A DNA stretch of 64,000 bases from Escherichia phage AV115. Where the stretch lies: the sequence record OR352945.1; one strand, given 5' to 3'. This document shows, in pieces, positions 8,753 through 57,100 of this stretch (the first letter of the stretch is position 1; each line of letters opens with the position of its first letter). Below the pieces are notes generated by a model. That model made no database searches. It had not been told where the DNA came from and saw only the letters and a program-made list of their open reading frames with translations. The position numbers and the translations under genes are program-made.

Positions 8753-10321
8753 ATGACTACTATCAAAACTAAAGCTCAGCTCGTAGACAAATGGAAAGAA
8801 CTGCTGGAAGGTGAAGGCCTGCCGGAAATCGCTAATAGCAAGCAGGCTATTATCGCTAAAATCTTCGAAAACCAGGAAAAAGATTTCGAAGTATCCCCTG
8901 AATATAAAGACGAGAAAATCGCTCAGGCATTTGGTTCTTTCTTGACCGAAGCTGAAATTGGTGGTGACCACGGTTATAATGCTCAGAACATCGCAGCGGG
9001 TCAAACCTCTGGTGCAGTAACCCAAATTGGGCCGGCAGTTATGGGTATGGTTCGTCGTGCTATTCCTAATCTGATCGCTTTTGATATTTGTGGTGTTCAG
9101 CCTATGAACAGCCCGACCGGTCAGGTATTTGCTCTCCGTGCAGTATATGGTAAAGACCCTATCGCTGCTGGCGCTAAAGAAGCTTTCCATCCGATGTATG
9201 CCCCGGACGCGATGTTCTCTGGTCAGGGTGCTGCTAAGAAATTCCCAGCTCTGGCTGCTGACACTACTACTGTTGTAGGTGATATCTATACTCACTTCTT
9301 CCAAGAAACTGGTACTGTATATCTGCAAGCTTCTGCTGTCGTAACACTTGATTCTGGTGCAACTGATGCAGCTAAATTAGATGCAGAAGTTAAGAAACAA
9401 ATGGAAGCTGGTGCACTGGTAGAAATCGCTGAAGGTATGGCTACTTCTATCGCTGAACTCCAGGAAGGTTTCAACGGTTCTACCGATAACCCATGGAATG
9501 AAATGGGCTTCCGTATCGATAAACAAGTTATCGAAGCTAAATCTCGCCAGCTGAAAGCTGCTTACTCTATCGAATTAGCACAAGACCTCCGTGCAGTACA
9601 CGGTATGGATGCTGATGCTGAACTGAGCGGTATTCTGGCTACAGAAATTATGCTAGAAATCAACCGTGAAGTTGTTGATTGGATTAACTACTCAGCACAG
9701 GTTGGTAAATCTGGTATGACCCTGACTCCTGGTTCTAAAGCTGGTGTATTTGACTTCCAGGACCCGATTGATATCCGTGGTGCTCGTTGGGCCGGTGAAA
9801 GCTTTAAATCTCTGTTGTTCCAGATTGATAAAGAAGCAGTTGAAATTGCTCGTCAAACCGGTCGTGGTGAAGGTAACTTCATTATCGCTTCCCGTAACGT
9901 AGTTAACGTACTGGCTTCAGTTGATACTGGTATTTCTTACGCTGCACAGGGTCTGGCTTCCGGTTTTAATACCGACACTACTAAGTCTGTATTTGCCGGT
10001 GTACTTGGTGGTAAATACCGCGTATACATCGACCAGTATGCTAAACAGGATTATTTCACCGTTGGTTACAAAGGCGCTAACGAAATGGATGCAGGTATTT
10101 ACTATGCTCCTTACGTTGCACTTACCCCACTGCGTGGTTCCGATCCTAAGAACTTCCAGCCGGTAATGGGCTTTAAAACTCGTTACGGTATCGGTGTTAA
10201 CCCGTTTGCTGAAAGTTCCCTGCAGGCTCCAGGTGCTCGCATCCAGTCCGGTATGCCGTCTATCCTGAACAGCCTTGGTAAGAACGCTTACTTTAGACGC
10301 GTCTACGTTAAAGGAATTTAA
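8753..10321 (+). CDS. 23: major capsid protein
   Basis: 522 aa; near-identical to T4 gp23 throughout. Confidence 0.97.
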   Translation: MTTIKTKAQLVDKWKELLEGEGLPEIANSKQAIIAKIFENQEKDFEVSPEYKDEKIAQAFGSFLTEAEIGGDHGYNAQNIAAGQTSGAVTQIGPAVMGMVRRAIPNLIAFDICGVQPMNSPTGQVFALRAVYGKDPIAAGAKEAFHPMYAPDAMFSGQGAAKKFPALAADTTTVVGDIYTHFFQETGTVYLQASAVVTLDSGATDAAKLDAEVKKQMEAGALVEIAEGMATSIAELQEGFNGSTDNPWNEMGFRIDKQVIEAKSRQLKAAYSIELAQDLRAVHGMDADAELSGILATEIMLEINREVVDWINYSAQVGKSGMTLTPGSKAGVFDFQDPIDIRGARWAGESFKSLLFQIDKEAVEIARQTGRGEGNFIIASRNVVNVLASVDTGISYAAQGLASGFNTDTTKSVFAGVLGGKYRVYIDQYAKQDYFTVGYKGANEMDAGIYYAPYVALTPLRGSDPKNFQPVMGFKTRYGIGVNPFAESSLQAPGARIQSGMPSILNSLGKNAYFRRVYVKGI

Positions 10322-10378: not shown

Positions 10379-11038
10379 CTATAGCTTAAAACAATCATCG
10401 CGTTCATTAATCCAATTTCTTATAGTTTTTGCGGATACGTTAAAGAATTCGGCAGCGTAATCGTAGTGGTTAAATTCATGGCCTTTAATAGAAATATCCA
10501 CAAATACAAATTTCTTACCTTTATTAGAATTCTTTCTAATTTTTGCTTTATGCTCTTCTGATAGTTTTCTACCTTTAAGATGAGAATCTCTATTTTTATA
10601 AAACTTTTTATTTGCTATAGATTTGTTTTCTCGATGTTCTTTAGATTCTTTAGAACCTAATTTCTTTTTAGATATTTTGGCCCGAACTTCTTCAGTCATA
10701 CCAGCTTTTGTCTTTTCGGATAACATCTCACGATACCCAGGTTCCTGTAAAGCTACTATAACAGGATTACCCTTGCCGCCTAAGGCTGCATTATAAGTAT
10801 CTGTTCTCATGACAAAAGCCTCGTCAACTAGTTCGGCTTCCTTAGCATACATCTCTTCAGATGTTTCGAAATTGAAAAGGATTTCCTTTTTAAAATTCTC
10901 TAAGCCGTATTTCTTTATGGATTTTACTATGTTAACCCCGGAACCCATATAAGAATCGTTAACATCTGTGGTGGCATGGGCTCCAACATAAATCTTGTTA
11001 TTAATGAGATTGGTTATTTTGTAAATTAAATAATTCAT
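10379..11038 (-). CDS. segD: GIY-YIG homing endonuclease (SegD-like)
   Basis: 219 aa; N-terminal IYKITNLINNKIYVG GIY-YIG motif, K-rich C-terminal DNA-binding region; same 23-24 intergenic position as T4 segD. Confidence 0.8.
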   Translation of the reverse strand: MNYLIYKITNLINNKIYVGAHATTDVNDSYMGSGVNIVKSIKKYGLENFKKEILFNFETSEEMYAKEAELVDEAFVMRTDTYNAALGGKGNPVIVALQEPGYREMLSEKTKAGMTEEVRAKISKKKLGSKESKEHRENKSIANKKFYKNRDSHLKGRKLSEEHKAKIRKNSNKGKKFVFVDISIKGHEFNHYDYAAEFFNVSAKTIRNWINERDDCFKL

Positions 11039-11411: not shown

Positions 11412-12692
11412 ATGAGTAAAATCCAAAAATTATTGCGTGAATCTACAACGTCTACTAGCAACTCAATTGGTCGCCCAAATCTCGTTGCTTTGACTCGCGC
11501 TACGACTAAATTAATATATTCTGACATTGTAGCAACACAAAGAACTAATCAACCTGTTGCTGCTTTTTATGGTATCAAATATCTTAACCCAGATAACGAA
11601 TTCACATTTAAAACCGGTGCTACTTATGCGGGTGAAGTTGGATATGTAGACCGAGAAAAAATTACTGAACTCACAGAAGAATCAAAAGTCACACTAAATA
11701 AAGGTGATTTTTTCAAATATAATAATATCGTCTATAAAGTGTTAGAAGATACACCATTTGCAGATATTCAAGAAAGTGATCTAGAATTAGCTCTTCAGAT
11801 TGCAGTCGTTCATTTAAAGGTACGGTTATTTTCAGATGCAGCGGTAACAAGCAAATTTGAAAGCTCTGGTAGCGAAATTTCTGATGCAAGATTCCAGATT
11901 AATAAATGGCAAACTTCAGTCAAATCTCGTAAACTTAAAACTGGCCTCACAGTTGAATTAGCGCAAGATTTGGAAGCGAATGGATTTGATGCCCCTAACT
12001 TCTTAGAAGATTTGCTTGCAACTGAAATGGCAGATGAAATTAATAAAGATATTCTTCAGTCTTTAATTACTGTATCGAAACGTTATAAAGTTACTGGAAT
12101 TACTGACACTGGATTTATTGACTTGAGCTATGCATCCGCTCCAGAAGCAGGTCGTTCATTATATCGAATGGTGTGTGAAATGGTATCACACATTCAAAAA
12201 GAGTCAACTTATACTGCAACGTTTTGTGTAGCCTCAGCTCGTGCAGCTGCTATTCTTGCTGCTTCTGGTTGGTTAAAACATAAGCCGGAAGATGATAAGT
12301 ATCTTTCACAAAATGCTTATGGATTCTTGGCAAATGGATTACCTCTTTACTGCGATACCAACAGTCCGTTAGATTATGTTATTGTGGGTGTTGTAGAAAA
12401 TATCGGCGAAAAAGAAATTGTAGGGTCCATCTTTTATGCTCCATACACTGAAGGAGTAGATTTAGATGACCCGGAACATGTCGGTGCATTTAAAGTTGTA
12501 GTTGATCCAGAAAGCTTGCAACCGTCTATCGGATTATTGGTTAGATATGCTTTATCAGCAAATCCTTACACAGTAGCAAAAGACGAAAAAGAAGCGAGAA
12601 TAATTGATGGCGGGGACATGGATAAAATGGCAGGACGTTCAGACTTGTCTGTTTTACTCGGTGTTAAATTGCCTAAAATTATTATAGATTAA
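11412..12692 (+). CDS. 24: capsid vertex protein
   Basis: 426 aa; gp23 paralogue at T4 gene 24 position; late promoter at 11374. Confidence 0.93.
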   Translation: MSKIQKLLRESTTSTSNSIGRPNLVALTRATTKLIYSDIVATQRTNQPVAAFYGIKYLNPDNEFTFKTGATYAGEVGYVDREKITELTEESKVTLNKGDFFKYNNIVYKVLEDTPFADIQESDLELALQIAVVHLKVRLFSDAAVTSKFESSGSEISDARFQINKWQTSVKSRKLKTGLTVELAQDLEANGFDAPNFLEDLLATEMADEINKDILQSLITVSKRYKVTGITDTGFIDLSYASAPEAGRSLYRMVCEMVSHIQKESTYTATFCVASARAAAILAASGWLKHKPEDDKYLSQNAYGFLANGLPLYCDTNSPLDYVIVGVVENIGEKEIVGSIFYAPYTEGVDLDDPEHVGAFKVVVDPESLQPSIGLLVRYALSANPYTVAKDEKEARIIDGGDMDKMAGRSDLSVLLGVKLPKIIID

Positions 12693-43678: not shown

Positions 43679-45943
43679 TTAAAGCTTACAAGCAGAACAA
43701 TCTTCAGCTTTAGGTGTTTCTAATTCATAGTCATCTGTACCTGACCCATCACGAGTGTTATGATAGTAGAGGTTTTTTCCGCCAAAGTACCAGAAGTAAA
43801 GCAGATCGTCAAGCATTACTGACATTGGCACTTTACCTTTCTCAAATACTGCAGGGTCATAGTAAGTATTAGCAGAAGCAGATTGGCACACCCATTTCAA
43901 CATGATAGCAACTTGGGTCAAATAAGGTTTATTACCTTTCTTAGCAAGTTTCCACGCGTAGTCGTAAAGACTCATGTTATGTTCTATATTAGGAACAACC
44001 TGTCGGAAGTTGCCTTCTTTAGATTCTTTAATACTTACAGGTCCACGAGGTGGTTCTATACCATTTGTGCTATTTGAGACTTGACTGCTTGACTCACAAG
44101 GCATGAGTGCAGACAACGTTGAGTTACGAATTCCATGTTCTTTGAGTTCAGCTCGAAGTTCTTCCCAGTCACAGACATAGTTCGGGGCTGCGATTTGGTC
44201 AATCTTTTTATTGTACCAGTCGATAGGTAATTCGCCTCTAGACCATTTAGTGTCTGAATAATACTCACAAGGTCCTTTTTCTTTGGCGAGTTTGATTGAT
44301 GCTTTGATAAGGCCATATTGCAATCTCTCGAACAATTCATGGGTCAAATCGTTAGCGTCTTCATATGAAGCAAAGTTAGAAGCTAACCATGCAGCATAGT
44401 TCGTCACACCAACACCGAGATTTCGACGCTTTTTAGCTTTTAAAGCTTCTGGAACCGGATAATCTTGATAGTCTAACAGGTTATCAAGTGCACGTACTTG
44501 TACTTCAGCAAGTTCATTAATTTTATCTTGGTCTTGCCAATCAAATTTATCTAATACAAAAGCAGATAATGTGCATAAACCAATTTCAGCATCAGGACCA
44601 TTCACATCATTAGTTGGAATAGCGATTTCACAACATAAGTTACTCTGACGAATTGGAGCTTTTTCACGAATAAACGGAGTGTAGTTATTCGTGTTATCAA
44701 CAAACTGTGGATAAATTCGAGCAGTGCCAGAACGTTCAGTCATGAACAATTCAAAGAGTTCTAGTGCTTTGATTCTTTTCTTTCTGATTGTTGGGTCTTT
44801 TTCAGCTTTCTCATAAAGCTCACGGAATTTATCTTGATCTTCAAAGAACGAGTAGTATAGTTCACCTGACATTTCGTGAGGGCTAAATAAAGTAATATAA
44901 TCATTTTTACCAAGGCGTTCCATCATAAGGTCATTAATCTGAATTCCGTAGTCCATATGTCGAATACGGTTTTCATCCACGCCTTTGTTATTTTTCAGAA
45001 CTAATAGGTTCTCTACTTCTAAGTGCCACATCGGATAATACGCTGTAGCAGCACCACCACGAATACCACCTTGAGAACAAGATTTTACTGCAGTTTGGAA
45101 ATGTTTCCAGAATGGAATAACACCTGTATGTCGAACTTCACCCGTACCGATCTTAGAACCTTCTGCACGAAGCATACCAACGTTGATACCGATACCAGCT
45201 CGTTTAGAAATATATTCAATAATTGATGCTGAAGTTTTGTTAATAGATTTTAACGAATCACCTGCTTCAATAACTACACAACTAGAGAACTGGCGAGTTG
45301 GAGTACGAGCACCTGCCATAATTGGGGTTGGCAATGAAACTTGATGAGTAGAAACGGCATCATAAAAACGAATAATATGTTTCAAACGGTCATGAGTTTC
45401 GTCTTGGTGTAAGGCCATGCCAATAGCCATGATAGCAAACTGGGGAGTTTCATAAATCTTCCCAGTTGTTTTATCTTTAACTAGATATTTTTCTTTAAGC
45501 TGCATAGCACCAGCATAAGTCAGGTCAAAGTCTCGTTCATGTTTAATCTGTGAATCGAGATAAATGATTTCTTCTGCTGAATATTGAGACAACAGCTCAG
45601 GGTCATATTTGCCTTCATTAACACAGTAAGAAATATGGTCTATAAAAGCAGGCGGTTCAAACTGCCCATATACATCTTTACGAAGTGCAAACATTAGCCC
45701 TTTGGCGGCGACATACTGATAATCAGGTTCTTCGACAGAAATCAAGTTAGCTGCAACTTTAATACAAATCTTCTGAATATCTTTGGTGCTCATCCCGTCG
45801 ACAAGATGGGTCTTAATTTCTTCATACAATTCGTATGGGTCGATTTGTGTTCCTTCACACTGCCAAGTTAATACTTGAATAATTTTCTGTGCATCAAAAT
45901 TTTGGGATACACCTGAATTTTTCACTACTTTAAAATTATACAT
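43679..45943 (-). CDS. nrdA: ribonucleotide reductase large subunit
   Basis: 754 aa; close to T4 NrdA; C-terminal CxxC. Confidence 0.97.
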   Translation of the reverse strand: MYNFKVVKNSGVSQNFDAQKIIQVLTWQCEGTQIDPYELYEEIKTHLVDGMSTKDIQKICIKVAANLISVEEPDYQYVAAKGLMFALRKDVYGQFEPPAFIDHISYCVNEGKYDPELLSQYSAEEIIYLDSQIKHERDFDLTYAGAMQLKEKYLVKDKTTGKIYETPQFAIMAIGMALHQDETHDRLKHIIRFYDAVSTHQVSLPTPIMAGARTPTRQFSSCVVIEAGDSLKSINKTSASIIEYISKRAGIGINVGMLRAEGSKIGTGEVRHTGVIPFWKHFQTAVKSCSQGGIRGGAATAYYPMWHLEVENLLVLKNNKGVDENRIRHMDYGIQINDLMMERLGKNDYITLFSPHEMSGELYYSFFEDQDKFRELYEKAEKDPTIRKKRIKALELFELFMTERSGTARIYPQFVDNTNNYTPFIREKAPIRQSNLCCEIAIPTNDVNGPDAEIGLCTLSAFVLDKFDWQDQDKINELAEVQVRALDNLLDYQDYPVPEALKAKKRRNLGVGVTNYAAWLASNFASYEDANDLTHELFERLQYGLIKASIKLAKEKGPCEYYSDTKWSRGELPIDWYNKKIDQIAAPNYVCDWEELRAELKEHGIRNSTLSALMPCESSSQVSNSTNGIEPPRGPVSIKESKEGNFRQVVPNIEHNMSLYDYAWKLAKKGNKPYLTQVAIMLKWVCQSASANTYYDPAVFEKGKVPMSVMLDDLLYFWYFGGKNLYYHNTRDGSGTDDYELETPKAEDCSACKL

Positions 45944-46571
45944 AATAATTCCATGTTGGATAATTTGATGATTTTAGACGGCGTCTAACCGTTTGGGTGC
46001 TCATAGATAAAATTATTGACGCTTCATTTAATGTATCATATATTACGTCGTTTATAATTACTTTCTTTGCAAATGGATTCTTAGCTCCTATCATAGCGTT
46101 AGAAATAGCTTGCTTAGTTGATTCTTTTAATGGGACTCCTTTAGAAATTTTTGTTTTAATTTTTATATTGTATTGTCCGCGTTTTTTACCTAATAAAGAA
46201 TTTCGTATCTTTTCTTTAGTCTCTTCAGATTTAACATGTCCTAGTTTGGAACGAGATATTTTATCTTTTGTTTTTTGGTCTAATTTTCGCCCTTTAAGCA
46301 AATCAACCATTTTTGCTCTAGCCCATCCAAATTCTTTATTATTTCTAGAACTCATTAAATTAACCGCGGTTGCTAAACCTAAATTGTTCGGATATATTTT
46401 TAATAAAAGAAGATGAGCCAAATAATGTTCTGAATATGTTAATTTAACTAGATTGTATGACTCATTGGTGCCACCTAAACATTTTGGGATTATATGATGC
46501 CATTCACCATCGATATCTTCAAAATTTCTTTCTTTATTTACTAAGTTTTTATATATTTTTAAATAATCCAT
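45936..46571 (-). CDS. HNH homing endonuclease (MobE-like)
   Basis: HNH motif EWHHIIPKCLGG...NLV; repeated K-rich NUMOD-like segments; track start GTG 46583, ATG at 46571; 3' end overlaps nrdA start. Confidence 0.8.
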   Translation of the reverse strand: MDYLKIYKNLVNKERNFEDIDGEWHHIIPKCLGGTNESYNLVKLTYSEHYLAHLLLLKIYPNNLGLATAVNLMSSRNNKEFGWARAKMVDLLKGRKLDQKTKDKISRSKLGHVKSEETKEKIRNSLLGKKRGQYNIKIKTKISKGVPLKESTKQAISNAMIGAKNPFAKKVIINDVIYDTLNEASIILSMSTQTVRRRLKSSNYPTWNYYV

Positions 46572-46646
46572 AGTATAATCCACTTTGTAGTATCAACGGG
46601 ATAGTATTTATCCCGTTAATTTATTATACACTTTTAAACTGAAGCG

Positions 46647-46901
46647 TTAATTATCCTCAGCAATAATTTCTTCGTATTCTTTAGGTGTCAAGACCGTGAT
46701 ATTGAAATAAACCAACGGTTCTTTTTCCACACCGTAACCACCACAGAATTCACGATATTCATAAATTCGTTCATGTGAATAACAAATGAATCGTTCACCT
46801 TTAACTATGATTTCACTATTCGGTGAAGGGATATCTAGTTCGGTAGGATTTTTCATTTCAAAAATTGTGGTGCCATATGAATTAATAAAACGTAAAATCA
46901 T
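46647..46901 (-). CDS. hypothetical protein
   Basis: 84 aa; ATG 1 nt after td stop. Confidence 0.4.
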   Translation of the reverse strand: MILRFINSYGTTIFEMKNPTELDIPSPNSEIIVKGERFICYSHERIYEYREFCGGYGVEKEPLVYFNITVLTPKEYEEIIAEDN

Positions 46902-46902
46902 T

Positions 46903-47214
46903 TTATACCGCCATTTTAGCTTTGATAGCTGGATGTGATTCGTAATTTTTAAGAACGAAATCAGAATGTGTCATCGTTCCGGTAACCCAGTCCATTTGGA
47001 TTTTTGTAGGCCAATTCTCAAAATTACTAGGCCAATTAATTTCAAGAGAACATAACTCTTTAGGTTCATGACGAAGAACTTCTTTGCATTGTTCTACATG
47101 ATTGCTGTAGATATGCGTGTTGCCGCCTGAGAACACTAAATCACCTGGGATAAGGTTACACATCTTCGCTACAATATGTGTCAAGGCAGCGTACGAGGCG
47201 ATGTTGAACGGTAG
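46903..47214 (-). CDS. td: thymidylate synthase, exon 2
   Basis: C-terminal TS (LPFNIASYA...); track ATG at 47215-47217 is the last 3 nt of the intron (cataATG|CTACCG). Confidence 0.93.
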   Translation of the reverse strand, partial: LPFNIASYAALTHIVAKMCNLIPGDLVFSGGNTHIYSNHVEQCKEVLRHEPKELCSLEINWPSNFENWPTKIQMDWVTGTMTHSDFVLKNYESHPAIKAKMAV

Positions 47215-48230
47215 CATTATGTTCAGATAAGGTCGTTAATCTTATCCCGGAATTATATCCAGCTGCATGTCACCATGCAGAGCAGACTATATCTCCAACT
47301 TGTTAAAGCAAGTTGTCTATCGTTTCGAGTCACTTGACCCTACTCCCTAAAGGGATAGTCGTTAGGCATTTATGTAGAACCAATTCCACTTATCAGATTT
47401 TACACGGTAAGTAACTAATCCTGATGAAATTTCAAAATGTCTAGCCGCATCGGCTGCACATTCAAAAATAATCCCATCGCATGAAATCTTTTTGATGTTA
47501 GCTGGCTTTTTGCCTTTCATCTTTTCAGATAGTTTAGTTTTAGTTTTTTCTGAATGTTTGTGATTAAAGAACGGGTTATTTTCACCTGAACGTTTTCGGC
47601 ACTTTCCACAAGTATCGGCCGAAGATGGTATGCGAACACCGCATTTACAAAACTTGTGGTTTTCTGGATTCCATCGGCCATTTTTACTTCCGTGTTTACC
47701 ATAAAGAGCTTTCCGACCATCAGGACCAAGCTTAAGCATCTTAGCTTTAACAGTTTCAGCTCGTTTCTTAGCAATTTCTTCTTTTAATGGATGATTTGAA
47801 AGCACATCGCCAAAAGACGCATCAGCAATATTATATCCATTAATTTTAGAATTTAGCTCTTTAATCCAAAAATTTTCTCGTTCAATAATCAAATCTTTCT
47901 CATATGGAATTTCTTCCAGTATAGAGCATTCAAAAACATTACCATGTTTATTAAAAGACCTTTGAAATTTTATAGAAGAGTGAACACCGTTTTCAAGGTC
48001 TTTAAAATGTCTCTTCCATCTTTTCTCAAAATCTTTAGCACTTCCAACATACACTTTACCGTTTAAAGTGTTTTTAATCTGATAAATTCCGCTTTTCATA
48101 AACACCTCTTTTTATATAGAAGTATTTATTAAAGGGTAGTCCTACAATTTAGCACGGGATTGTCTACTAGAGAGGTCCCCCGTTTAGATAGATTACAAGT
48201 ATAAGTCACCTTATACCTAGGCCTAAATTA
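47215..48230 (-). mobile_element. group I self-splicing intron in td
   Basis: 1016 nt; 5' and 3' intron sequences as I recall the T4 td intron; exon 1 ends ...GGT. Confidence 0.93.
47362..48099 (-). CDS. I-TevI: intron-encoded GIY-YIG homing endonuclease I-TevI
   Basis: 245 aa from ATG 48099 (track GTG start at 48105); MKSGIYQIKNT...; GIY-YIG plus zinc finger. Confidence 0.97.
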   Translation of the reverse strand: MKSGIYQIKNTLNGKVYVGSAKDFEKRWKRHFKDLENGVHSSIKFQRSFNKHGNVFECSILEEIPYEKDLIIERENFWIKELNSKINGYNIADASFGDVLSNHPLKEEIAKKRAETVKAKMLKLGPDGRKALYGKHGSKNGRWNPENHKFCKCGVRIPSSADTCGKCRKRSGENNPFFNHKHSEKTKTKLSEKMKGKKPANIKKISCDGIIFECAADAARHFEISSGLVTYRVKSDKWNWFYINA

Positions 48231-48779
48231 ACCTAAGAAAACATCTACACTGCGTTGATACCATTGTAAATCAAGATGACCATTACGCACATTGAACTGA
48301 TAGAACATATGGCAAGGAGGAAGAGCCATTTGATTTATTTCAGCCGGATTCCAGGCAGAAACAATTTGACGACGATCAGTTGGTAATTTTTTAATACGGT
48401 CGATTGTTTCAACTAATTGGTCTACACCACCAAAATCACGCCATTGCTTACCATAAATAGGACCAAGTTCGCCGCTATGATATCCAAGGTCTTTTGCCTG
48501 ATTTTCATAGTTGTCGTCCCAAATAGTTTTACCTTGAATAAGACTACCATGAGTACGAATACGCAAATCATTAACATTGGTAGAACCAGACATGAACCAC
48601 AGTAACTCGGCAATACAAGCTTTCCATGCTAATTTCTTAGTTGTTACTGCAGGAAATCCTTTAGTAAGGTCCCAACGTAATTTAGTTCCGAACAGGGCAA
48701 TAGTGCCGGTACCTGTACGGTCGTCTGTTTCGTAGCCATTTTCTAAGATATCTTTAATCAGGTATTGGTATTGTTTCAT
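48231..48779 (-). CDS. td: thymidylate synthase, exon 1
   Basis: N-terminal TS with active-site region PPCH; 183 codons. Confidence 0.95.
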
Positions 48780-49363
48780 TTATATACGCTCTCAGTAATT
48801 TCGGTGAGTTCATCGATTCTGTAGTAATGAGATTCTACCATAGAACGTTGAAGCATAATATCTTGGACGAAATCTTTATCAAGTTGAACATCGGAATTAA
48901 CACGACATTTCTTAATGATTTTAGTCATCACGATTTCATCGGCATAAGGCAGTGCTTGTTTTAATAGAGCAGGGCCACCAATAATAGATACATCAACATG
49001 TTCAGTAGAAAGTTTAAACGGTACGTCAGTTGCAGGGCTAAACAGGTTAATTTCACCACCCGTTACCAAGGTAATAAATTCTGCTTGGGTGATATAGAAC
49101 CGTGCAAGTTCGTTGGTTTTGGTCCTAGGCAGTTTTCTGGCCATATCAGTGACAACCACATGAGTACGATCCTGGAGTAGACGAGGTAATGATGCAAAAG
49201 TCTTAGCACCCATAACCATTACAGTGTTTTTAGTGCGAGCAACAAAGTTACTCATATCTTGTTTGATATGCTTCCATGGAAGTCCATCACCTAATCCAAA
49301 AGCATATTCCAGTTTATCATCAACTGTTTTAGTCGGAGCGCATGCGAATACTAATTTAAGCAT
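48776..49363 (-). CDS. frd: dihydrofolate reductase
   Basis: 195 aa; stop overlaps td start; T4 Frd length and position. Confidence 0.9.
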   Translation of the reverse strand: MLKLVFACAPTKTVDDKLEYAFGLGDGLPWKHIKQDMSNFVARTKNTVMVMGAKTFASLPRLLQDRTHVVVTDMARKLPRTKTNELARFYITQAEFITLVTGGEINLFSPATDVPFKLSTEHVDVSIIGGPALLKQALPYADEIVMTKIIKKCRVNSDVQLDKDFVQDIMLQRSMVESHYYRIDELTEITESVYK

Positions 49364-49366
49364 TTT

Positions 49367-49615
49367 TTATTTCCTCAGATTTTTCTTAACAACTTTCCAA
49401 TCAGCTTTAAACGATTCAACATCAGAGTGGTGAATCCAGAATCCTGCACTTTCACCATCTTCGTAGAGTGGACATCCATCGCATTCTTCGTTCCAACCCA
49501 TTTCACGTAAAGCTTCTTCAGCTTGTTCAAGGAGTTCAGCGTCTTTACCAACGATGTTGAAGTACCATTTACCTCTAACTTCAGAATCTTTGATGCTCTG
49601 GCGTTGCAATCTCAT
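49367..49615 (-). CDS. hypothetical protein
   Basis: Track ORF starts with a non-ATG codon at 49678; first ATG (MRLQRQ...) at 49615. Confidence 0.4.
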   Translation of the reverse strand: MRLQRQSIKDSEVRGKWYFNIVGKDAELLEQAEEALREMGWNEECDGCPLYEDGESAGFWIHHSDVESFKADWKVVKKNLRK

Positions 49616-49677
49616 TTTATTCTCCTTCACTTTTGATTTGATAGGGCTACTATAACATAACCCTATCTGATTATACA

Positions 49678-50070
49678 CTACTTTTTAAAAGTTTTTTGCA
49701 AAAGTTTGATGATTTCGTCGACGTTGGTTTCATCTACGATACAATGGATTTTTGTTACACCTAAAGTTATACCTTCGTTAGTAGGTTGAGGCTTTACTAA
49801 ATCTACTTCAATAAAGTATTTGAACTCGTCAGGATAAATCTCGAAATAAGTTTCAATTTCACCACCGGCAGAACATACAGTACCGTCTTCCATAGTTACA
49901 CTTACTACGTTTGACGTATCGCTATCATAATCAGGTTCCATTCCGTTTACAACAAAACTAGGCCCATGGAGTTCAATCAATTTTAACATCTTAGCGTTAT
50001 TGTGTGGTGCTTCTTGAACAAAGTCGTCTTTAAATAAAGGGTTAATGATATAAGATTTTCCGATTTCCAT
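49678..50070 (-). CDS. hypothetical early protein
   Basis: 130 aa; SD GAGGAA and early promoter upstream. Confidence 0.5.
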   Translation of the reverse strand: MEIGKSYIINPLFKDDFVQEAPHNNAKMLKLIELHGPSFVVNGMEPDYDSDTSNVVSVTMEDGTVCSAGGEIETYFEIYPDEFKYFIEVDLVKPQPTNEGITLGVTKIHCIVDETNVDEIIKLLQKTFKK

Positions 50071-50099
50071 TTTGATTTCCTCATGTTGTTGATAGGTCT

Positions 50100-50128
50100 A
50101 TACTAACACATCCAGGTAAGAAGTAAAC
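50100..50128 (-). promoter_or_regulatory. early sigma70-type promoter
   Basis: GTTTAC-N17-TAGTATAGAC on minus strand, preceded by hairpin 50160-50177; leader CAACAACATGAGGAAA. Confidence 0.6.
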
Positions 50129-50159
50129 AACTTTTTCGGCAATTTACAGATACTCAAAA

Positions 50160-50177
50160 GGGAGACCGAAGTCTCCC
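50160..50177 (-). terminator. stem-loop GGGAGACCGAAGTCTCCC (copy 2), after gene 32
   Basis: Identical 18-nt hairpin, T-run on minus strand, followed by early promoter. Confidence 0.6.
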
Positions 50178-50183
50178 AATTTA

Positions 50184-51083
50184 TTATAGACCAGCTAACA
50201 GGTCATCGAGGTCACCATCGTCAGAAGACGAGGAACTCATGAAGTCATCTTCAGTTTTTGCAGAACCAAAGGCTTCCATGTCTTTATCAAAATCGTCAAG
50301 GTCAGAAGCAACTTTATCTGCAACAGAAGCTGCTGCGGCTGCTGCACCACCAAGAGCGGCAGTACCAAGAACTTGATTAAATTTAGTATTCAATTCTTCA
50401 AACGATTTGAACTTATCTTTAGAAGTCATTTCAGAAAGGTCGACCATTTGTTCGAACAATTCTTTCTGGAAAGATTCATCATCAATGTTTGGAATCGCAG
50501 ATTGATTCAGGAATTTAGATTCGTCGTAGTTACTGAAACCAGAAACCTGTTTAACTTTCAGCACAAAGTTAGCACCTTCCCACGGGCAAGTTACATCAAC
50601 AGGAGTTTCACCCATTTCAGTATCGACTGCAATCATTGCATTGATTTTGTCCCAAATCTTTTTACCGAAACGATATTTGAATACTTTACCTTCATTATCT
50701 GGAGCTTGAGGGTCTTTAACAACCAGAATATTAGCCCAATAAGAAGTTTTACGTTTCAGTTGAGAATATTCAGTTTTGTTGGTATTGTACAGGTCATTTT
50801 TACTAATGTACTGACATACAGGACAAGAGTCATAATCGCCGTGTGTAGATGAACAGGTTTCAATATACCATTTACCATTTTTCTTGAACCCGTGGTTAAC
50901 AAGAATTGTAAACGGAAGTGCGTCATCTGTTTTTGCCGGCAGGAAACGAATTACCGCTTGACCATTACCGGATGCATCGAGTTTCAGCTTCCATTCACCT
51001 TTATCTTCTGAAGAGAAACCTTTGTTACCATTCAGTTTAGCCATCTGAGCTGCGAGGTCTGCGGTACTTTTACGTTTAAACAT
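50184..51083 (-). CDS. 32: single-stranded DNA-binding protein
   Basis: 299 aa; near-identical to T4 gp32 (zinc site, acidic C-terminal tail). Confidence 0.97.
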
Positions 51084-51160
51084 TTTATTTGCCTTTATTT
51101 AGATTATTAATTAAATTTTACAGTTGGTTGCTACGACACTTATACCTCGTAGCTGGTATG
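51084..51160 (-). promoter_or_regulatory. gene 32 5' leader (putative autoregulatory translational operator)
   Basis: Long A/U-rich leader with repeated UUAAA/UAAA elements upstream of weak SD AAAGG. Confidence 0.45.
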
Positions 51161-51163
51161 ATT

Positions 51164-51171
51164 TATTTATA
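51164..51171 (-). promoter_or_regulatory. late promoter TATAAATA (gene 32)
   Basis: Plus TATTTATA ~80 nt upstream of gene 32 start. Confidence 0.55.
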
Positions 51172-51200
51172 AAGTAATTTTAACACACAAGAAATAAAGC

Positions 51201-51854
51201 TTAATACTTACATGATTTGATTGTTTCTATGAACAATTTCTTAGCAGCATTTCTATCGATTTGAAGTATTTTTCGATATGCCTTTAATTTGGTAGAATAA
51301 TTTTGCCAGACTAAGTTATCGGTGAGTTCGTCGTGCTTATCTATAATATTCAAAAACGAGTCCAACAATAAGAAAGTTTCAAATGAAATTATATTGCTTT
51401 GTAGCAATTTAAATATGTAGCTCGACTGAACGTTGTTATTATAATCAAATATCTCTTGAAGCGCACTAACTTCAACTTTCTTACTGAAATAGTAGATGTT
51501 ACGTACGTCTTCAGCAAACGTCTCCTTGGCTTGTTTGAGACGTCCAATATATTCCCTATAGAAAACTAATGCATCAGCGTCTGATATCTCACCAATCCAT
51601 GCGTCTTGGTTAGCAACTAAGTTGCTTATGAATATCAAGGTGAGTTCCTTCAATTTATATTTCTCTGCTAGTTTTTCAAAGAAATATTTATCTCGGCGTT
51701 TTTGATACGCATTATCCGAAACACGCATGCACCAGTTATATTTGATTACGTCATACCGACCACCAAAGTGGTTTTTGCACATCAAGTATAGTTTATATAC
51801 TGATTTTCCATTAATATAACGTTCTCCGTCAGGAGGCATGCGTATTTTAATCAT
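51201..51854 (-). CDS. 59: helicase loader
   Basis: 217 aa; close to T4 gp59. Confidence 0.95.
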   Translation of the reverse strand: MIKIRMPPDGERYINGKSVYKLYLMCKNHFGGRYDVIKYNWCMRVSDNAYQKRRDKYFFEKLAEKYKLKELTLIFISNLVANQDAWIGEISDADALVFYREYIGRLKQAKETFAEDVRNIYYFSKKVEVSALQEIFDYNNNVQSSYIFKLLQSNIISFETFLLLDSFLNIIDKHDELTDNLVWQNYSTKLKAYRKILQIDRNAAKKLFIETIKSCKY

Positions 51855-52530
51855 AGTTCCATCCAGGCCATTTTGAAGATTTAAGTCTATATGTAACTAA
51901 AGACGCAGAAATATTAAAAACATTTGAAACTTCTTTACACGAGGCGTATTTTACACCATCAATAATTATAGGTTTTTGTTTTTTAATAGTTCTTTCTTTA
52001 GAATGCGGCTTTGAATTTGCTATTCTAAGAGCTTCTTTGGTTGAATCAGGCATCGGCTTATTCGTTTTTCGCCCTTTTCGGACTTTACTCAAGGCCAATT
52101 TGTGAGCTTCAGATAGTTTCTTACCCTTATTAGGTGACGGTATTTTTCTTTCTAGTCTTGTTTTAGATACTTTAGCCTTAGTCTCTTCAGATCTAGGTTT
52201 ACCTAATTTAGAAAGTGAAATAGACCTTTTAGCTTCATCACTTTGTTTTTTACCAGGACCACCTTTACCACCGGGAACTAAGTTATAAGTATCATCTCGC
52301 AAAACAAAATCTTCATTAACCAATTCTGCTTCTTTTTTATAGGCGTCCTTGTCATTATCATATTCATAAAGAATTTCGGTATAAAAATTTTTTAGTCCAT
52401 ATTTAGCTTTGGCCGCTAATATAGCGCGGCCTGATCCAATATACCAATCTTTCTCTTTATGTTTTTTGTGTACGCCTATATAAATTTTACCATTTATTTT
52501 ATTGGTAGTTTTATACACAACGTATTTCAT
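51847..52530 (-). CDS. GIY-YIG homing endonuclease (Seg-like)
   Basis: 227 aa; VYKTTNKINGKIYIG motif, K-rich C-terminal half; ATG overlaps gene 33 stop (ATGA), 3' end overlaps gene 59 start. Confidence 0.8.
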   Translation of the reverse strand: MKYVVYKTTNKINGKIYIGVHKKHKEKDWYIGSGRAILAAKAKYGLKNFYTEILYEYDNDKDAYKKEAELVNEDFVLRDDTYNLVPGGKGGPGKKQSDEAKRSISLSKLGKPRSEETKAKVSKTRLERKIPSPNKGKKLSEAHKLALSKVRKGRKTNKPMPDSTKEALRIANSKPHSKERTIKKQKPIIIDGVKYASCKEVSNVFNISASLVTYRLKSSKWPGWNYD

Positions 52531-52865
52531 AATAAGAAATCTAGCGTATTAGTTTTTTCACCACGAGCAACTGATGGGCGAAGCATGTTTTCGTCAATTG
52601 CTTCGCTTGTAATTTTTTCAACAATTCCTGTAGGAATAAATTTAGCAAATTGTGTTTCTGGAATAGAATTTTCTTCCAAGAAAGCAGTTGTTGCTTCTAA
52701 ATAAGACATACCAAATTGTTCAACCATGGATTCGATAATGAATCCGTTTTCTTGACGGTCAAGCAATTTAGCGATATCATCTTTATCGTGTTTTACTGCT
52801 AATTCTTGTTCAGATAAACCGGCCTCATCAACCGGTTTAATATCACTTAGTGAAAACTGTGTCAT
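52527..52865 (-). CDS. 33: late transcription accessory protein
   Basis: 112 aa; T4 gp33 length and position. Confidence 0.9.
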   Translation of the reverse strand: MTQFSLSDIKPVDEAGLSEQELAVKHDKDDIAKLLDRQENGFIIESMVEQFGMSYLEATTAFLEENSIPETQFAKFIPTGIVEKITSEAIDENMLRPSVARGEKTNTLDFLL

Positions 52866-53130
52866 AAAGCTCGACTACCTCTTCGTTTTCAGCTTCAAAT
52901 TGGTCACGAGCGTCTTTATGATAAAGAGCTAACAAACGATTAAACATTTTTCCATCGACACCAAGCTCTTCTTTAGCACGAGTACGAATGTCTTTAATCA
53001 GTTCATTATAACCAGAAATTTTAAGTTTGTTATCGGAAGCTTCCTTGACTAGTTTAGCCAGTTCTTCACCATGCACATCTTGATTAAATTCAACTGCTTC
53101 TTTCTTAGCCATGTTTACCTCAGAATTCAT
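52843..53130 (-). CDS. dsbA: double-stranded DNA-binding protein
   Basis: 95 aa ORF (possibly 89 aa from second Met at ~53112); position between rnh and gene 33. Confidence 0.8.
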   Translation of the reverse strand: MNSEVNMAKKEAVEFNQDVHGEELAKLVKEASDNKLKISGYNELIKDIRTRAKEELGVDGKMFNRLLALYHKDARDQFEAENEEVVELYDTVFTK

Positions 53131-54037
53131 TAATTACACTTGTCAATTTAGAAAGACCAGATTTTACAAAGTATGAATAAATCTTGCCTTTAGGTTGTGG
53201 TTTATATGAGTTATAATACTCTATAATGGTTGAAGCAATATTATCAGGGATATAATCAAAATCAATGAGAACCAAATTTTCTTGATACCGTTTATATTCT
53301 TCTGCACTTAATAATACTTCAGCTTGAGAGCGGTCATTGGCAATTGCTTCAATAATCGTTGTTTTCATGCTTGGAGTTCGTTCACCATCAACTCTGGTAA
53401 ACCAGAAGTCACCACGAACTCGAACCGATGCAACACCGTCTTTACGGTCACCTTTAAGAATTTTAGTCATGCAATCAATTTCAGCAGAACCGTTCTTAAT
53501 TTTAACCCATTTTTTCTGTGGTGGCGACCACTGTTTAACGTTAGGATATTTGTGTAATTGTGTAAAGTCACCATCTGATGCAACAATACATACTTTATGT
53601 CCAGCTAATGACAAATATTTAGTTAATACACCGATATGGTCATCCGCTTCATACTTGTCAATATCCATTACAACGTATGGCATGTATTTCTTAATCTCAT
53701 CAACAACTTGATGGAGTGCAGTAAAATATCCTTCCCAATCCCACTTTGAAGCTTCACGATCGGTTTTACGATTTTTCTTGTAATAGTAAGCAAAGTCACG
53801 TCGCCAATAACCTGAAGTAGCATTATCCATACACAATACAAATTTTGTATAGCCTTGCTTACGGAACATCACTACGTTTTTACGAATTGAATTCAAGATT
53901 ACATGGCGAACCATCGGAACAGTAATTTTATCGCCGTCTTCAAAGTTGTTTAATGCGGCTGCCAATGCAATGTTACTAAAGTCGGCAAGTGCAATACCTT
54001 CTTTGTAATCTTCATCCAACATCATTTCTAAATCCAT
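53120..54037 (-). CDS. rnh: RNase H / 5'-3' exonuclease
   Basis: 305 aa; close to T4 RNase H. Confidence 0.95.
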   Translation of the reverse strand: MDLEMMLDEDYKEGIALADFSNIALAAALNNFEDGDKITVPMVRHVILNSIRKNVVMFRKQGYTKFVLCMDNATSGYWRRDFAYYYKKNRKTDREASKWDWEGYFTALHQVVDEIKKYMPYVVMDIDKYEADDHIGVLTKYLSLAGHKVCIVASDGDFTQLHKYPNVKQWSPPQKKWVKIKNGSAEIDCMTKILKGDRKDGVASVRVRGDFWFTRVDGERTPSMKTTIIEAIANDRSQAEVLLSAEEYKRYQENLVLIDFDYIPDNIASTIIEYYNSYKPQPKGKIYSYFVKSGLSKLTSVINEF

Positions 54038-54069
54038 ATGAACCTCTTGTTCAGTTAGTCAACTTGTCT

Positions 54070-54099
54070 ATAGTAACACACTCATTTGAAAGCGTAAAC
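54070..54099 (-). promoter_or_regulatory. early sigma70-type promoter (rnh)
   Basis: GTTTAC-N18-TACTATAGAC on minus strand ~33 nt before rnh ATG; 4 nt from gene 34 late promoter on opposite strand. Confidence 0.55.
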
Positions 54100-54102
54100 T
54101 GG

Positions 54103-54110
54103 TATAAATA
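54103..54110 (+). promoter_or_regulatory. late promoter TATAAATA (gene 34)
   Basis: Exact TATAAATA ~30 nt before gene 34 ATG. Confidence 0.7.
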
Positions 54111-54140
54111 AGTATTATTGAAACAATAAAGGAAAAACGA

Positions 54141-57100
54141 ATGGCCGACATCAAACGTAAGTTCAGAGCCGAAGACGGTCTGGACGCCGGTGGCGACAAG
54201 ATTGTTAACGTAGCATTAGCCGACCGTACAGTAGGTACTGATGGCGTAAACGTTGACTTCCTGGTACAAGAAAACACCGTTCAAGTATATGATTCTACGC
54301 GTGGATATAACAGAGGATTTGTTGTTCTTTATGACAACCGCTTATATCAAGCAATAAATGATATCGTGTCTCCTTCCGGGGCATTTAACCTTTTACAATG
54401 GCGTGCAGTTCGTACTGATGCACAATGGATAACCGTCGCTTCTGGGACTTATCAACTTTCTTCAGGCGAATCGATTTCTGTTAACACTGGTGCCGGCAAT
54501 GATATGGTTTTCACGTTGCCAAATACTCCGGTTGATGGTGATACTGTTGTTTTGGCTGATATTGGTGGAAGAACCGGGACAGTTAAAGTACAGATTAACG
54601 CGTCTGTGCAGAGTATTTTAAACTTTAGAGGTGAACAAGTTCGTACAGTTTTAATGACGCGCCCACGTTCACAACTATTGTTTGTGTTTAGTAATCGTTT
54701 GTGGCAGATGTATATTATCGATTATGGTAAAGAATCAATCACTGTTACACCTGCGACACCATATCAAGCACAAGCAAATGATTTTATCGTTCGTCGTTTT
54801 ACTAGTGCAGCACCAATCAACATTACACTTCCACGTAATGCTAACAATGGTGATATAATCAGCCTAGTCGATTTAGATAGATTAAACCCACTGTATCATA
54901 CAATTGTTAAAACATTTGATGATACAACGTCTATTGGTGAAGTCGGGACTCATATTGCCGAAGGCAGAAATGACTCTGACGCGTTTTTTGTTTTTGATGC
55001 CGCAAATAGTTTATGGCGTATATGGGAAGGCGACCAGAAATCGCGTCTTCGTATTATCCGTGCGGATTCAAATATTCGTCCAAATGAAGAAGTTCTTATT
55101 TTTGGCACAAATAACGCTACAGCCGGAACTATTAATCTTACGCTGCCTTCCGGAATTTTGAGTGGTGACACTGTTAAAATTTCAATGAACTACATGCGTA
55201 AAGGCCAAACAGTAAAAATTAAAGCTGCCGAAGGTGATACAATTGCTTCTTCTGTCGCATTACTTCAGTTCCCTAAACGTTCTGAATATCCACCTGATGC
55301 TCAATGGGTTTCTGTTACTGAACTAGAATTCAATGGCACTACTTCATATGTTCCTGTGTTAGAATTAGCGTATATCGAAGACACTGTTGCTGGTACACGT
55401 TATTGGGTTGTTCAACAAAACGTCCCTACAGTAGAACGTGTTGATGCTGGAACTGATGCTACACGAGCTCGTTTAGGTGTTATTGCTCTTGCTACTCAAG
55501 CGCAAGCAAATGTTGATTTAGAGAATACTCCAGCTAAAGAAGTGGCTATTACTCCGGAAACATTGGCAAATCGTACAGCAACTGAAGCTCGACGTGGTAT
55601 CGCTAAAATTGCTACAACAGCACAAGTTAACCAGAATTCCACAGCATCATTTGTGGACGATACTATTGTTACGCCTAAAAAACTAAATGAGCGTACAGCA
55701 ACTGAAACTCGTCGCGGTCTTGCTGAAATTGCTACTCAGACCGAAACCGATGCTGGTCTTGATGACACAACGATTATTACACCTAAGAAATTGCAGGCAC
55801 GTCAGGGTTCTGAAACACTATCGGGTATAGTTAAATATGTATCAACTACTTCTGCTACTCCTGCTGAAACTCGTGGGGCTGCAGGCACTAACGTTTATAA
55901 TAAAGACACAACTACGTTAACTATTTCGCCTAAAGCTCTCGATCAGTATAAAGCGACTTCTACTCAACAGGGTGCTACTATTCTGGCTCTTGAAAGTGAA
56001 GTAATTGCTGGTCAATCCCAAGCAGGTTATTCTCATGCTGTAGTAACTCCTGAAACACTACATAAGAAAACTTCTACTGATGGACGTATTGGTTTAATTG
56101 AAATTGCTACGCAAGCAGAAACTAATGCTGGGACTGATTATACACGTGCAGTAACGCCTAAGACGTTAAATGATAGGAAAGCTACGGAAGGATTATCCGG
56201 CATAGCCGAACTTGCTACGCAAGTTGAATTTGATACTGGAACTGATGATACTCGTATCTCGACTCCACTGAAAATTAAAACTCATTTTGATTCTTCTGAC
56301 CGTACCAGTGTTAATTCTGATTCCGGACTTATTGAAGAAGGAACCTTGTGGAACCATTATACTCTTGATATTTCTAAAGCAAATGAAACACAACGTGGTA
56401 CACTTCGCGTAGCGACCCAGGCAGAATCTAATGCAGGAACTTTAGATGATGTTCTTATTACTCCTAAAAAGCTTTTAGGGACTAAGTCCACTGAAACGTC
56501 TGAAGGCGTAATTAAGGTTGCTACTCAGGCTGAAACTGTAACAGGAACTTCTGCTAATACTGCTGTATCTCCTAAGAATTTAAAATGGATTGTCCAGAAA
56601 GAACCAACATGGGCTGCTACTACAGCAATTCGCGGATTCGTTAAAACTTCATCCGGTTCTATTACATTCGTTGGTAATGATACAGTCGGTTCTACCCAAG
56701 ATTTAGAACTGTATGAGAAAAATAGCTATGCAGTATCACCATATGAATTAAACCGTGTATTGGCAAATTATTTGCCGTTAAAAGCAAAAGCCGTAGATAG
56801 TAATTTATTGGATGGTCTAGATTCATCTCAGTTCATTCGTAGGGACATCGCCCAGTCAGTTAATGGTTCACTAACCTTAACCCAACAAACGAATCTGAGT
56901 GCCCCTCTTGTATCATCTAGTACTGCTACGTTTGGTGGTTCAGTTTCGGCAAATAGTACATTAACTATTTCTAACTCTGGAACAGCTACTCGTCTGATTT
57001 TTGAAAAAGGACCTCAGTCCGGAACAAATCCTGCTCAAACGATGACTATCAGAGTTTGGGGAAATGAATTTGGTGGTGGTTCAGATACAACACGTTCTAC

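Follow-up and report, generated by a model that had tools for sequence, protein, structure and literature searches.

The window analysed here is a stretch of 64,000 nt from the genome of Escherichia phage AV115 (sequence record OR352945.1), and the gene in question is an intact open reading frame (ORF) of 684 bp with an ATG start, at window positions 51847..52530 on the minus strand, with a 227-aa product predicted to be a homing endonuclease. A sequence-only reading, which gave no strand (it is supplied by the present analysis), had placed a Seg-like GIY-YIG endonuclease gene between genes 59 and 33, with its ATG overlapping the gene 33 stop and its 3' end overlapping the gene 59 start. Pfam indeed gives gp33, the late-transcription co-activator, as the product of the upstream neighbour (52527..52865, minus strand; Trans_coact, 3.5e-26) and gp59, the helicase loader, as that of the downstream neighbour and predicted target gene (51201..51854, minus strand; T4_Gp59_N, 1.9e-49, and T4_Gp59_C, 7.8e-44). 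Both overlaps are present in the raw sequence: the ATG of the ORF (52530-52528) shares bases with the TGA of gene 33 (52529-52527) to form ATGA, and its TAA (51849-51847) falls inside codons 2-3 of gene 59, the ATG of which is at 51854-51852 (8 nt of overlap, ATGATTAA). The homing endonuclease gene (HEG) is thus intergenic, sharing bases only with the stop of gene 33 and the start of gene 59, and is neither intron- nor intein-borne. With DsbA and RNase H also recognized by Pfam among the neighbours, the gene order, rnh-dsbA-33-[ORF]-59-32, is that of the T4-type block and lies entirely on the minus strand.

Sequence, domain and predicted-fold comparisons together identify the product as a free-standing homing endonuclease of the GIY-YIG/Seg family with an I-TevI-like two-domain build. 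A chance ORF is excluded by the matches to TIGR01453 ('group I intron endonuclease', 74.2 bits for a cutoff of 56, residues 4-224), to PHROG 314 ('homing endonuclease', 1.9e-56) and to the Pfam domain I-TevI_DNA-bd (PF20987, 46.5 bits for a cutoff of 27). The GIY-YIG nuclease domain (about aa 1-89; 52264..52530, minus strand) was delimited from invariant residues, predicted fold and Foldseek matches; the N-terminal motif noticed in the sequence-only reading is VVY...IYIG, at residues 4-19. In an alignment of the protein with 29 database homologues (30 sequences) the residues Y6, Y17, G19, H21, Y30, G32, G34, E67, Y82 and N83 were invariant, and the hallmarks of the family (both tyrosines of the motif, the catalytic Glu and the conserved Asn) are present (Y6, Y17, G19, E67, N83). 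Next comes a linker rich in lysine and made up of about four helical repeats resembling NUMOD3 (aa 93-175; 52006..52254, minus strand; one weak NUMOD3 hit and four predicted helices at residues 98-173), about 30 aa of which are missing in some of the homologues found at the same genomic position (see below). The C-terminal half, which had been described as K-rich, contains 27 (residues 91-227) of the 42 lysines of the 227-residue protein. It ends with an I-TevI-type helix-turn-helix (HTH) DNA-binding domain (aa 183-226; 51853..51984, minus strand; PF20987), matched by phmmer to PDB entry 1I3J (5e-4). An I-TevI-type zinc finger is absent, since the whole protein has a single Cys, C198.

The AlphaFold2 model (mean predicted local distance difference test score, pLDDT, 84.6, falling to 58-73 in the linker blocks around residues 91-110) shows an N-terminal domain with a beta-beta-alpha-beta-alpha fold, then four helices in the linker and, at the C-terminus, a small beta-beta-helix-helix domain. 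Its best PDB matches by Foldseek were the I-TevI DNA-binding domain 1I3J (probability 1.00) and the I-TevI catalytic domain 1MK0/1LN0 (for 1MK0, probability 1.00 and target-normalised TM 0.67), with I-HmuI next. Among the T4 Seg proteins, BLASTP ranked SegD first (39.5% identity over 200 aa, 3e-37), before SegC (33%, 219 aa, 1e-28), SegB (48% over the N-terminal 91 aa, 1.5e-24), SegE (45% over the N-terminal 91 aa, 1.5e-21), SegA (39%, 157 aa, 1e-15) and, marginally, SegF (28%, 106 aa, 1.3e-6); no hit was reported for T4 SegG, and the SegG homologue of SP18 gave E = 0.56, meaning no detectable similarity. The Seg-like assignment of the sequence-only reading is therefore backed by BLASTP as well as by domains and fold.

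Megablast assigned the window to Mosigvirus (RB69-like phages). The population analysis was based on GenBank phage records; IMG/VR offers only 12 gp33 loci, and its viral contigs gave no close relative of the ORF (best match, 38% identity). The flanking genes are found in 157 Mosigvirus records. The 684-bp ORF is present in 28 of them (about one in six), at 94.7-99.9% nt identity; they represent about 25 distinct phages, including Shf125875, SHSML-52-1, several AV phages and BASEL Bas45 PaulHMueller. About 125 records match over 989 bp rather than 1665 bp, which corresponds to an empty site. Alignment of eight occupied and eight empty Mosigvirus loci defined an insertion of 676 bp relative to the empty-site relatives (51851..52526, minus strand). 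Its boundary is ambiguous by 5 bp owing to a TATGA direct repeat, the left copy of which (52527..52531, minus strand) comprises the gene 33 stop and HEG start and the right copy (51851..51855, minus strand) the HEG 3' end and gene 59 start. In the empty site, including that of RB69 and T4, the stop of gene 33 and the ATG of gene 59 overlap directly (ATGA). RB69 has been reported to be without any homing endonuclease genes (PMC2993671).

The two states coexist in one species recognized by the International Committee on Taxonomy of Viruses, Mosigvirus mar005p1, with the gene in WFbE185 and without it in NBG1 and mar005P1. On a larger scale, about 38 of 1473 phage records encoding gp59 carry an endonuclease gene at the 33/59 junction. 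The comparison of the junction among relatives that had been suggested with the sequence-only reading thus finds the insertion in a minority of them, and the universal presence that was to speak against this reading is not observed. That close relatives either have or lack the gene at a single fixed locus, the vacant site being clean, shows that the gene is mobile. In GenBank the ORF is labelled 'homing endonuclease', 'putative Seg-like homing DNA endonuclease' or 'SegH-like'; no paper characterising the 33/59 endonuclease turned up in the literature searches made.

Searches with tblastn and in the protein database revealed full-length homologues in a graded series, with identities of 47-58%. 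Every one inspected lies between gp33 and gp59; it shares 4 nt with gene 33 and runs 8 nt into the gene 59 start, or about 26 nt in the case of CHI14 and contig L109. They belong to Dhakavirus AnYang (the same tblastn match adjoins gene 33 in IME540 and LQ5), Serratia phage CHI14 (Winklervirus/Serratia group; likewise CBH8 and LC53, by tblastn), Kosakonia phage Kc304, Karamvirus KMB20 and the metagenomic contigs L103-L109 (proteins P0002-P0015). The next tier of homologues (38%) is located at capsid genes. Because homologues as diverged as 47-58% occupy exactly the 33/59 junction in several genera, these comparisons establish a Seg lineage that is specific to this site in several T4-like genera, and not a one-off insertion.

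Positional homologues share the domain order and an N-terminal MI(K/R) that matches the gene 59 start. In each lineage the HEG opens with the start codons of the resident gene 59, mostly ATGATTAAR (M-I-K) and ATGATTCGTC in both L109 genes, and in the other lineages a direct repeat of the gene 59 start, 8-10 bp long, flanks the cassette. In the window version codon 2 (Ile) has been lost, and the flanking repeat is shortened to TATGA; a reading of the AAATACG common to the HEG and gene 59 starts as a 4-nt deletion was rejected, since the lineages show loss of the Ile2 codon from an ancestral MIK start that had been taken over from gene 59. The flanking repeat gives the HEG and gene 59 equal coupled start contexts, and it could also mediate precise loss of the cassette. 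Homologues of 197-204 aa have, in the alignment, one linker repeat fewer and a different HTH segment. The KMB20 homologue, annotated as 132 aa, was at one point considered decayed; this was rejected, as translation gives an intact 199-aa ORF that is merely mis-annotated. A separate observation concerns P0002 (231 aa, contig L103) and P0012 (199 aa, L107/L094), which are identical over their first ~155 residues and differ beyond, where one linker repeat is gone and another HTH is found; judged by the sequences, this looks like recent module swapping at the DNA-binding end.

Between the eight occupied and eight empty loci, neither the junction nor gene 33 had any fixed difference. Such differences clustered inside gene 59, at nt 60, 82, 84, 91 and 92, and the population association delimits there a predicted target and immunity patch (gene 59 nt 60-92; 51763..51795, minus strand). 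At nt 82-92 a derived block, AAAAACCAYTTTGGT (K-N-H-F-G), stands against an ancestral one, AAACAACATTTTAAT (K-Q-H-F-N), the substitutions being Q28N and N31G: carriers read AAA AAC CAY TTT GGT, most non-carriers AAA CAA CAT TTT AAT, and comparison with the gp59 of T4, RB69, Dhakavirus and Karamvirus indicates that the non-carrier residues are ancestral. The nt-60 difference, TAT (derived) versus TAC (ancestral), was seen in the 16 aligned loci only. Of 154 records sorted by a 52-nt probe across the block, 58 were derived and 96 ancestral; all 28 carriers were derived, and the 126 non-carriers split into 30 derived and 96 ancestral (Fisher p = 7e-15). RB69, NBG1 and JS09 are examples of the ancestral block, NRG-P0074 and LF82 isolates of the derived block in HEG-less phages. 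Markers nearer to the insertion (gene 59 nt 27, 45, 48 and 54) formed five haplotypes in eight carriers and occurred in non-carriers also; those immediately beyond the block were likewise shuffled. Self-immunity at the target predicts just this, a complete association with the block in a region where linkage otherwise breaks down over tens of bases: all carriers would be derived, since a carrier whose target was sensitive would be cut by its own enzyme, and non-carriers would be free to hold either allele. From this pattern the target is likely to lie about 60-95 bp into gene 59, with the block conferring self-immunity. Were this target reading true, the form of the block, AAACAACATTTTAAT (ancestral) or AAAAACCACTTTGGT (derived), would set cleavage sensitivity. 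The CNNNG cleavage motif of I-TevI, looked for in the block by eye, was inconsistent between alleles and was not used.

Variation in other genera also bears on this stretch of gene 59. Four Dhakavirus carriers have a private variant at nt 50-109, including M25Q (ATG to CAA), which is not found in 45 non-carriers. Nucleotide diversity in Mosigvirus is maximal at gene 59 nt 50-100 (0.071), and the same stretch has zero diversity in five sequences of Tequatrovirus, a genus where the gene was not seen. A unique Dhakavirus divergence spike at nt 50-100, suggested by three genomes, was dropped when five genomes were considered and is kept as weak support only. The Tequatrovirus phage sutha differs from T4 by 0-4% across rnh, dsbA, 33 and most of 59, but at gene 59 nt ~25-255 its divergence is 0-4% relative to the derived Mosigvirus type and 16-32% relative to T4. 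The stretch resembles a patch left by break repair, one that stopped 24 nt before the insertion site. Along these lines, and at somewhat less than even confidence, we propose that the endonuclease cuts the essential gp59 gene at codons ~20-31, that carriers escape through Q28N/N31G in Mosigvirus and M25Q in Dhakavirus, so that a selfish gene would drive change in a replisome protein, and that its breaks seed cross-genus patches such as that of sutha. A second patch of Mosigvirus-like sequence lies in gene 32 of the same phage (L110, PV245934.1), at nt ~150-450 (locus ~2700-3000), 4-6% from Mosigvirus and 18-30% from T4, in a genome that is otherwise T4-like and devoid of segG. This second patch may span the reported cut region of T4 SegG, in which case it could be another conversion patch left by escape from an endonuclease.

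Among eight Mosigvirus alleles the ratio of non-synonymous to synonymous divergence (pN/pS) was 0.13 (0.09 for the nuclease domain, 0.10 for the linker and 0.20 for the HTH), gene 59 being at 0.05. The HEG alleles differ by a synonymous divergence (pS) of about 0.10, which suggests that the gene has long been resident in the genus under purifying selection, and that its association with the block is old and maintained. From these sequence data the endonuclease is sporadically distributed and apparently active.

As to its expression, the HEG start has no Shine-Dalgarno sequence, and no late-promoter motif, TATAAATA, was found within or directly upstream of the gene; the motif scan located one at 51164-51171 (minus strand), the late promoter of gene 32. 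A sigma-70 scan yielded 22 sites against 15.1 ± 3.7 in shuffled sequences (about 1.9 standard deviations), none of obvious relevance. Start-sequestering hairpins are known in some T4 endonuclease mRNAs. RNA folding at the HEG and gene 59 starts was no better than in shuffles (z = -1.16 and +0.38), and there is consequently no evidence for such a hairpin. The conserved codons at the C-terminal end of the HEG (...P-G-W-N-Y-D) encode the sequence GGATGGAA, 4-5 nt before the relocated gene 59 ATG. Reading of the HEG by translational coupling is a reasonable inference from the ATGA overlap, the missing Shine-Dalgarno sequence and the missing promoter. Further downstream, the gp32 gene (50184..51083, minus strand; Pfam) is separated from gene 59 by a 117-bp spacer that contains no entry of the ORF list, and is followed 3' by a terminator-like hairpin (50160-50177); Rfam found no RNA family over window positions 45000-54500.

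GIY-YIG homing endonucleases make site-specific double-strand cuts with 2-nt 3' overhangs, and seg-type genes are inherited preferentially in mixed infections (marker exclusion). The target of such genes lies near the insertion in HEG-less relatives, and carriers have polymorphisms that make them resistant; for the 33/59 gene the population data give a strong signature of this kind. We hold with good confidence that the ORF is a GIY-YIG/Seg HEG at the 33/59 junction, belonging to a site-specific lineage, expressed by coupling and homing through break repair, with its target probably in gene 59. It would be transcribed within the rnh-dsbA-33-59-32 unit, without a promoter of its own; it would take over the ATGA site at which gene 33 is coupled to gene 59, and its stop, inside the first codons of gene 59, would hand coupling on to that gene. 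When a carrier and a relative without the gene infect the same cell, the enzyme would make a double-strand break in the relative's DNA, and recombinational repair would then copy the HEG and flanking markers from the carrier. Carriers would be protected at the gene 59 site by the 4-5-nt substitution block (Q28N, N31G).

Several points weigh against this interpretation. On the side of the protein, Pfam SegE_GIY-YIG scores 22.4 bits, slightly below its cutoff of 25, and NUMOD3 18 bits, slightly under 20.4; the alignment has no invariant Arg/Lys column between the YIG and Y-x-GSG motifs, so that the equivalent of R27 of I-TevI could not be placed. No cleavage or homing experiment on the protein or on any positional homologue came up in the literature searches made, and SegD, the closest T4 relative, is listed as of undetermined activity and unknown target (PMC2988022). 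The AV116 copy (OR352946.1, 51844..52528) has 685 nt instead of 684 and is returned by tblastn in two pieces, i.e. with a frameshift that is either decay or a sequencing error. On the side of the target, the records behind the Fisher test are not independent, as they include RefSeq/GenBank duplicates and 13 near-identical LF82 isolates, and the association with the block could stem in part from shared ancestry or co-conversion. Carriers of the Karamvirus type (L103, L107 and KMB20) have an ancestral-looking gp59 peptide at residues 25-31. With five Dhakavirus sequences, nt 50-100 is just one of several places in the region where diversity peaks, and, given the second patch of sutha, such patches may reflect general mosaicism.

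The same HEG might instead recognize a site spanning the empty 33/59 junction, in which case the insertion itself would immunise the carrier and the gene 59 block would be a co-converted hitch-hiker. I-TevI, the architecture of which the 33/59 enzyme resembles, behaves in this way: it binds its own insertion site and cuts ~23-25 bp away. The junction sequence is moreover equal in carriers and non-carriers except for the insertion, the gene 59 start repeat bounds the cassette in every lineage, and the private Dhakavirus variant is less than 110 bp from the insertion, a distance at which co-conversion is plausible. Yet the nearer markers are the shuffled ones (five haplotypes in eight carriers) and the farther block is derived in 28 out of 28. 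Thirty non-carriers have the derived block, one of them (LF82-2) without the adjacent nt-60 marker, and such block-only non-carriers are better accounted for by short conversion tracts centred on the block than by tracts starting from the junction; the sutha patch, too, starts ~24 nt into gene 59 and leaves the junction out. We thus regard a target at the junction as rather unlikely.

That a formerly mobile gene has become inactive or domesticated, retained for gene 59 translation or as a DNA-binding regulator and homing no longer, is very improbable. The gene 59 start codon does lie within the 3' end of the ORF, and the only Shine-Dalgarno-like sequence of gene 59, GGATGGAA, is encoded by the conserved C-terminal GW motif of the HEG, so that an imprecise deletion would harm gene 59 expression; a review on T4 describes an analogous retention through embedded promoters (PMC2988022). 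However, the catalytic-domain residues are invariant in the 30 homologues and the nuclease domain shows the low pN/pS given above; patchy presence within a single species is the opposite of fixation; and the gene does not seem trapped, for most records have the clean empty site, and the direct repeat could restore it. We give still less credence, close to none, to the gene being merely a relocated variant of a named T4 endonuclease, SegG, SegH or SegD. GenBank labels point that way ('SegH; similar to RB3 segH' in Shf125875, 'segD' in CHI14), as does the rank of SegD among the T4 matches. Against this, similarity is undetectable for SegG (E = 0.56) and limited to 39.5% for SegD, 33% for SegC and 34-35% for SegH, SegH sits between nrdD and nrdG, and the window has a separate SegD orthologue in the SegD position. 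The latter (219 aa; 10379..11038, minus strand) is 58% identical to T4 SegD (4e-78) and lies antisense between the capsid-gene ORFs 8753..10321 and 11412..12692 (both plus strand), as segD does in T4.

Other endonuclease genes were encountered in the window and at related loci. The thymidylate synthase gene is apparently split (46903..48779, minus strand): the ORF 48228..48779 ends with ...QRSVDVFLG, the ORF 46903..47217 begins with (M)LPFNIASYA..., and between them lies a 247-aa orthologue of I-TevI (47362..48105, minus strand; MKSGIYQIKNTLNGKVYVGSAKDFEKRWKRH...KSDKWNWFYINA). The arrangement suggests a td group I intron together with its HEG, here in an RB69-like phage; Rfam at gathering threshold (45000-54500) did not call a td intron, and RB69 itself is reported to be without HEGs or introns (PMC2993671). 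A 215-aa ORF (45936..46583, minus strand) combines an HNH motif (EWHHIIPK...N...H) with NUMOD3-like repeats and, at the C-terminus, an HTH of the I-TevI type (...RRRLKSSNYPTWNYYV). At its 3' end it runs 8 nt into the start of nrdA (43679..45943), a design also seen in the 33/59 endonuclease, to residues 100-226 of which it is 37% identical; this likeness suggests that GIY-YIG and HNH endonucleases of the genome share DNA-binding modules. Among Dhakavirus and Gaprivervirus phages, SegG-like ORFs are found between 59 and 32 in AnYang (L003, 4345..4962), Bp7 (L096, 2169..2786), VR5 (L112, 1920..2531) and SP18 (L097, 2151..2789). In AnYang, endonuclease genes therefore flank gene 59 on both sides; QL01 and JS98 have neither.

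The protein is a member of the known Seg/I-TevI family, relatives of which were already annotated 'homing endonuclease', and no concept of the field is changed by it. What the analysis adds to the T4-type mobile endonucleases is a defined lineage of Seg genes that is specific to the 33/59 junction and present in at least five phage groups; new here are the limits of the cassette, the spread of a positional lineage over several genera, and a falsifiable prediction of target and immunity (the 4-5-nt block). The gene is present in the widely available BASEL Bas45 PaulHMueller, and RB69 and many HEG-less Mosigviruses could be natural recipients. They would provide a second model genus for homing, marker exclusion and co-conversion, with DNA that carries arabinosyl-hydroxymethylcytosine. 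The locus will also distort phylogenies and recombination maps of phages that are candidates for therapy.

To set the 33/59 enzyme among known systems, its closest structural counterpart is I-TevI, the T4 td-intron enzyme (1MK0/1LN0, 1I3J), which has the same succession of GIY-YIG domain, long linker and C-terminal HTH and shares with it the C-terminal motif LVTYRLKSxKW. I-TevI is, however, intron-encoded and has a Cys4 zinc finger, whereas the 33/59 enzyme is free-standing with a linker of NUMOD3-like repeats; the I-TevI orthologue of the window is only ~27% identical to it, and I-TevI cuts ~25 bp from the insertion where the predicted target of the 33/59 enzyme is 60-95 bp away. T4 SegD is also the product of a free-standing Seg-type gene, but at another locus, between genes 23 and 24. 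SegH (LZ2, RB3, T6 and PP01; between nrdD and nrdG) is 34-35% identical over 98% of the length, but it has 276 aa and a different locus, and the identity is too low for orthology; by identity and locus together, the 33/59 gene is an orthologue of none of SegG, SegH and SegD.

The comparison with SegG is one of neighbourhood and strategy. T4 segG lies between 59 and 32, and its product cleaves gene 32 (PMC2988022). The sequence-only reading had stated, with some hesitation, that segG adjoins gene 32 and is not at the 33/59 junction; it was right, gene 33 overlapping gene 59 directly in T4, and its suggestion of an independent insertion accords with the different site and with the undetectable similarity to SegG. 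The two genes are on opposite sides of gene 59, and the 33/59 gene is not segG. Both are nevertheless promoter-less, free-standing GIY-YIG cassettes that make use of an existing transcript in the same gene neighbourhood. SegG has been demonstrated to target the essential replication gene next to it, within the coding sequence, and not its own insertion point; the same is predicted for the 33/59 enzyme and gene 59.

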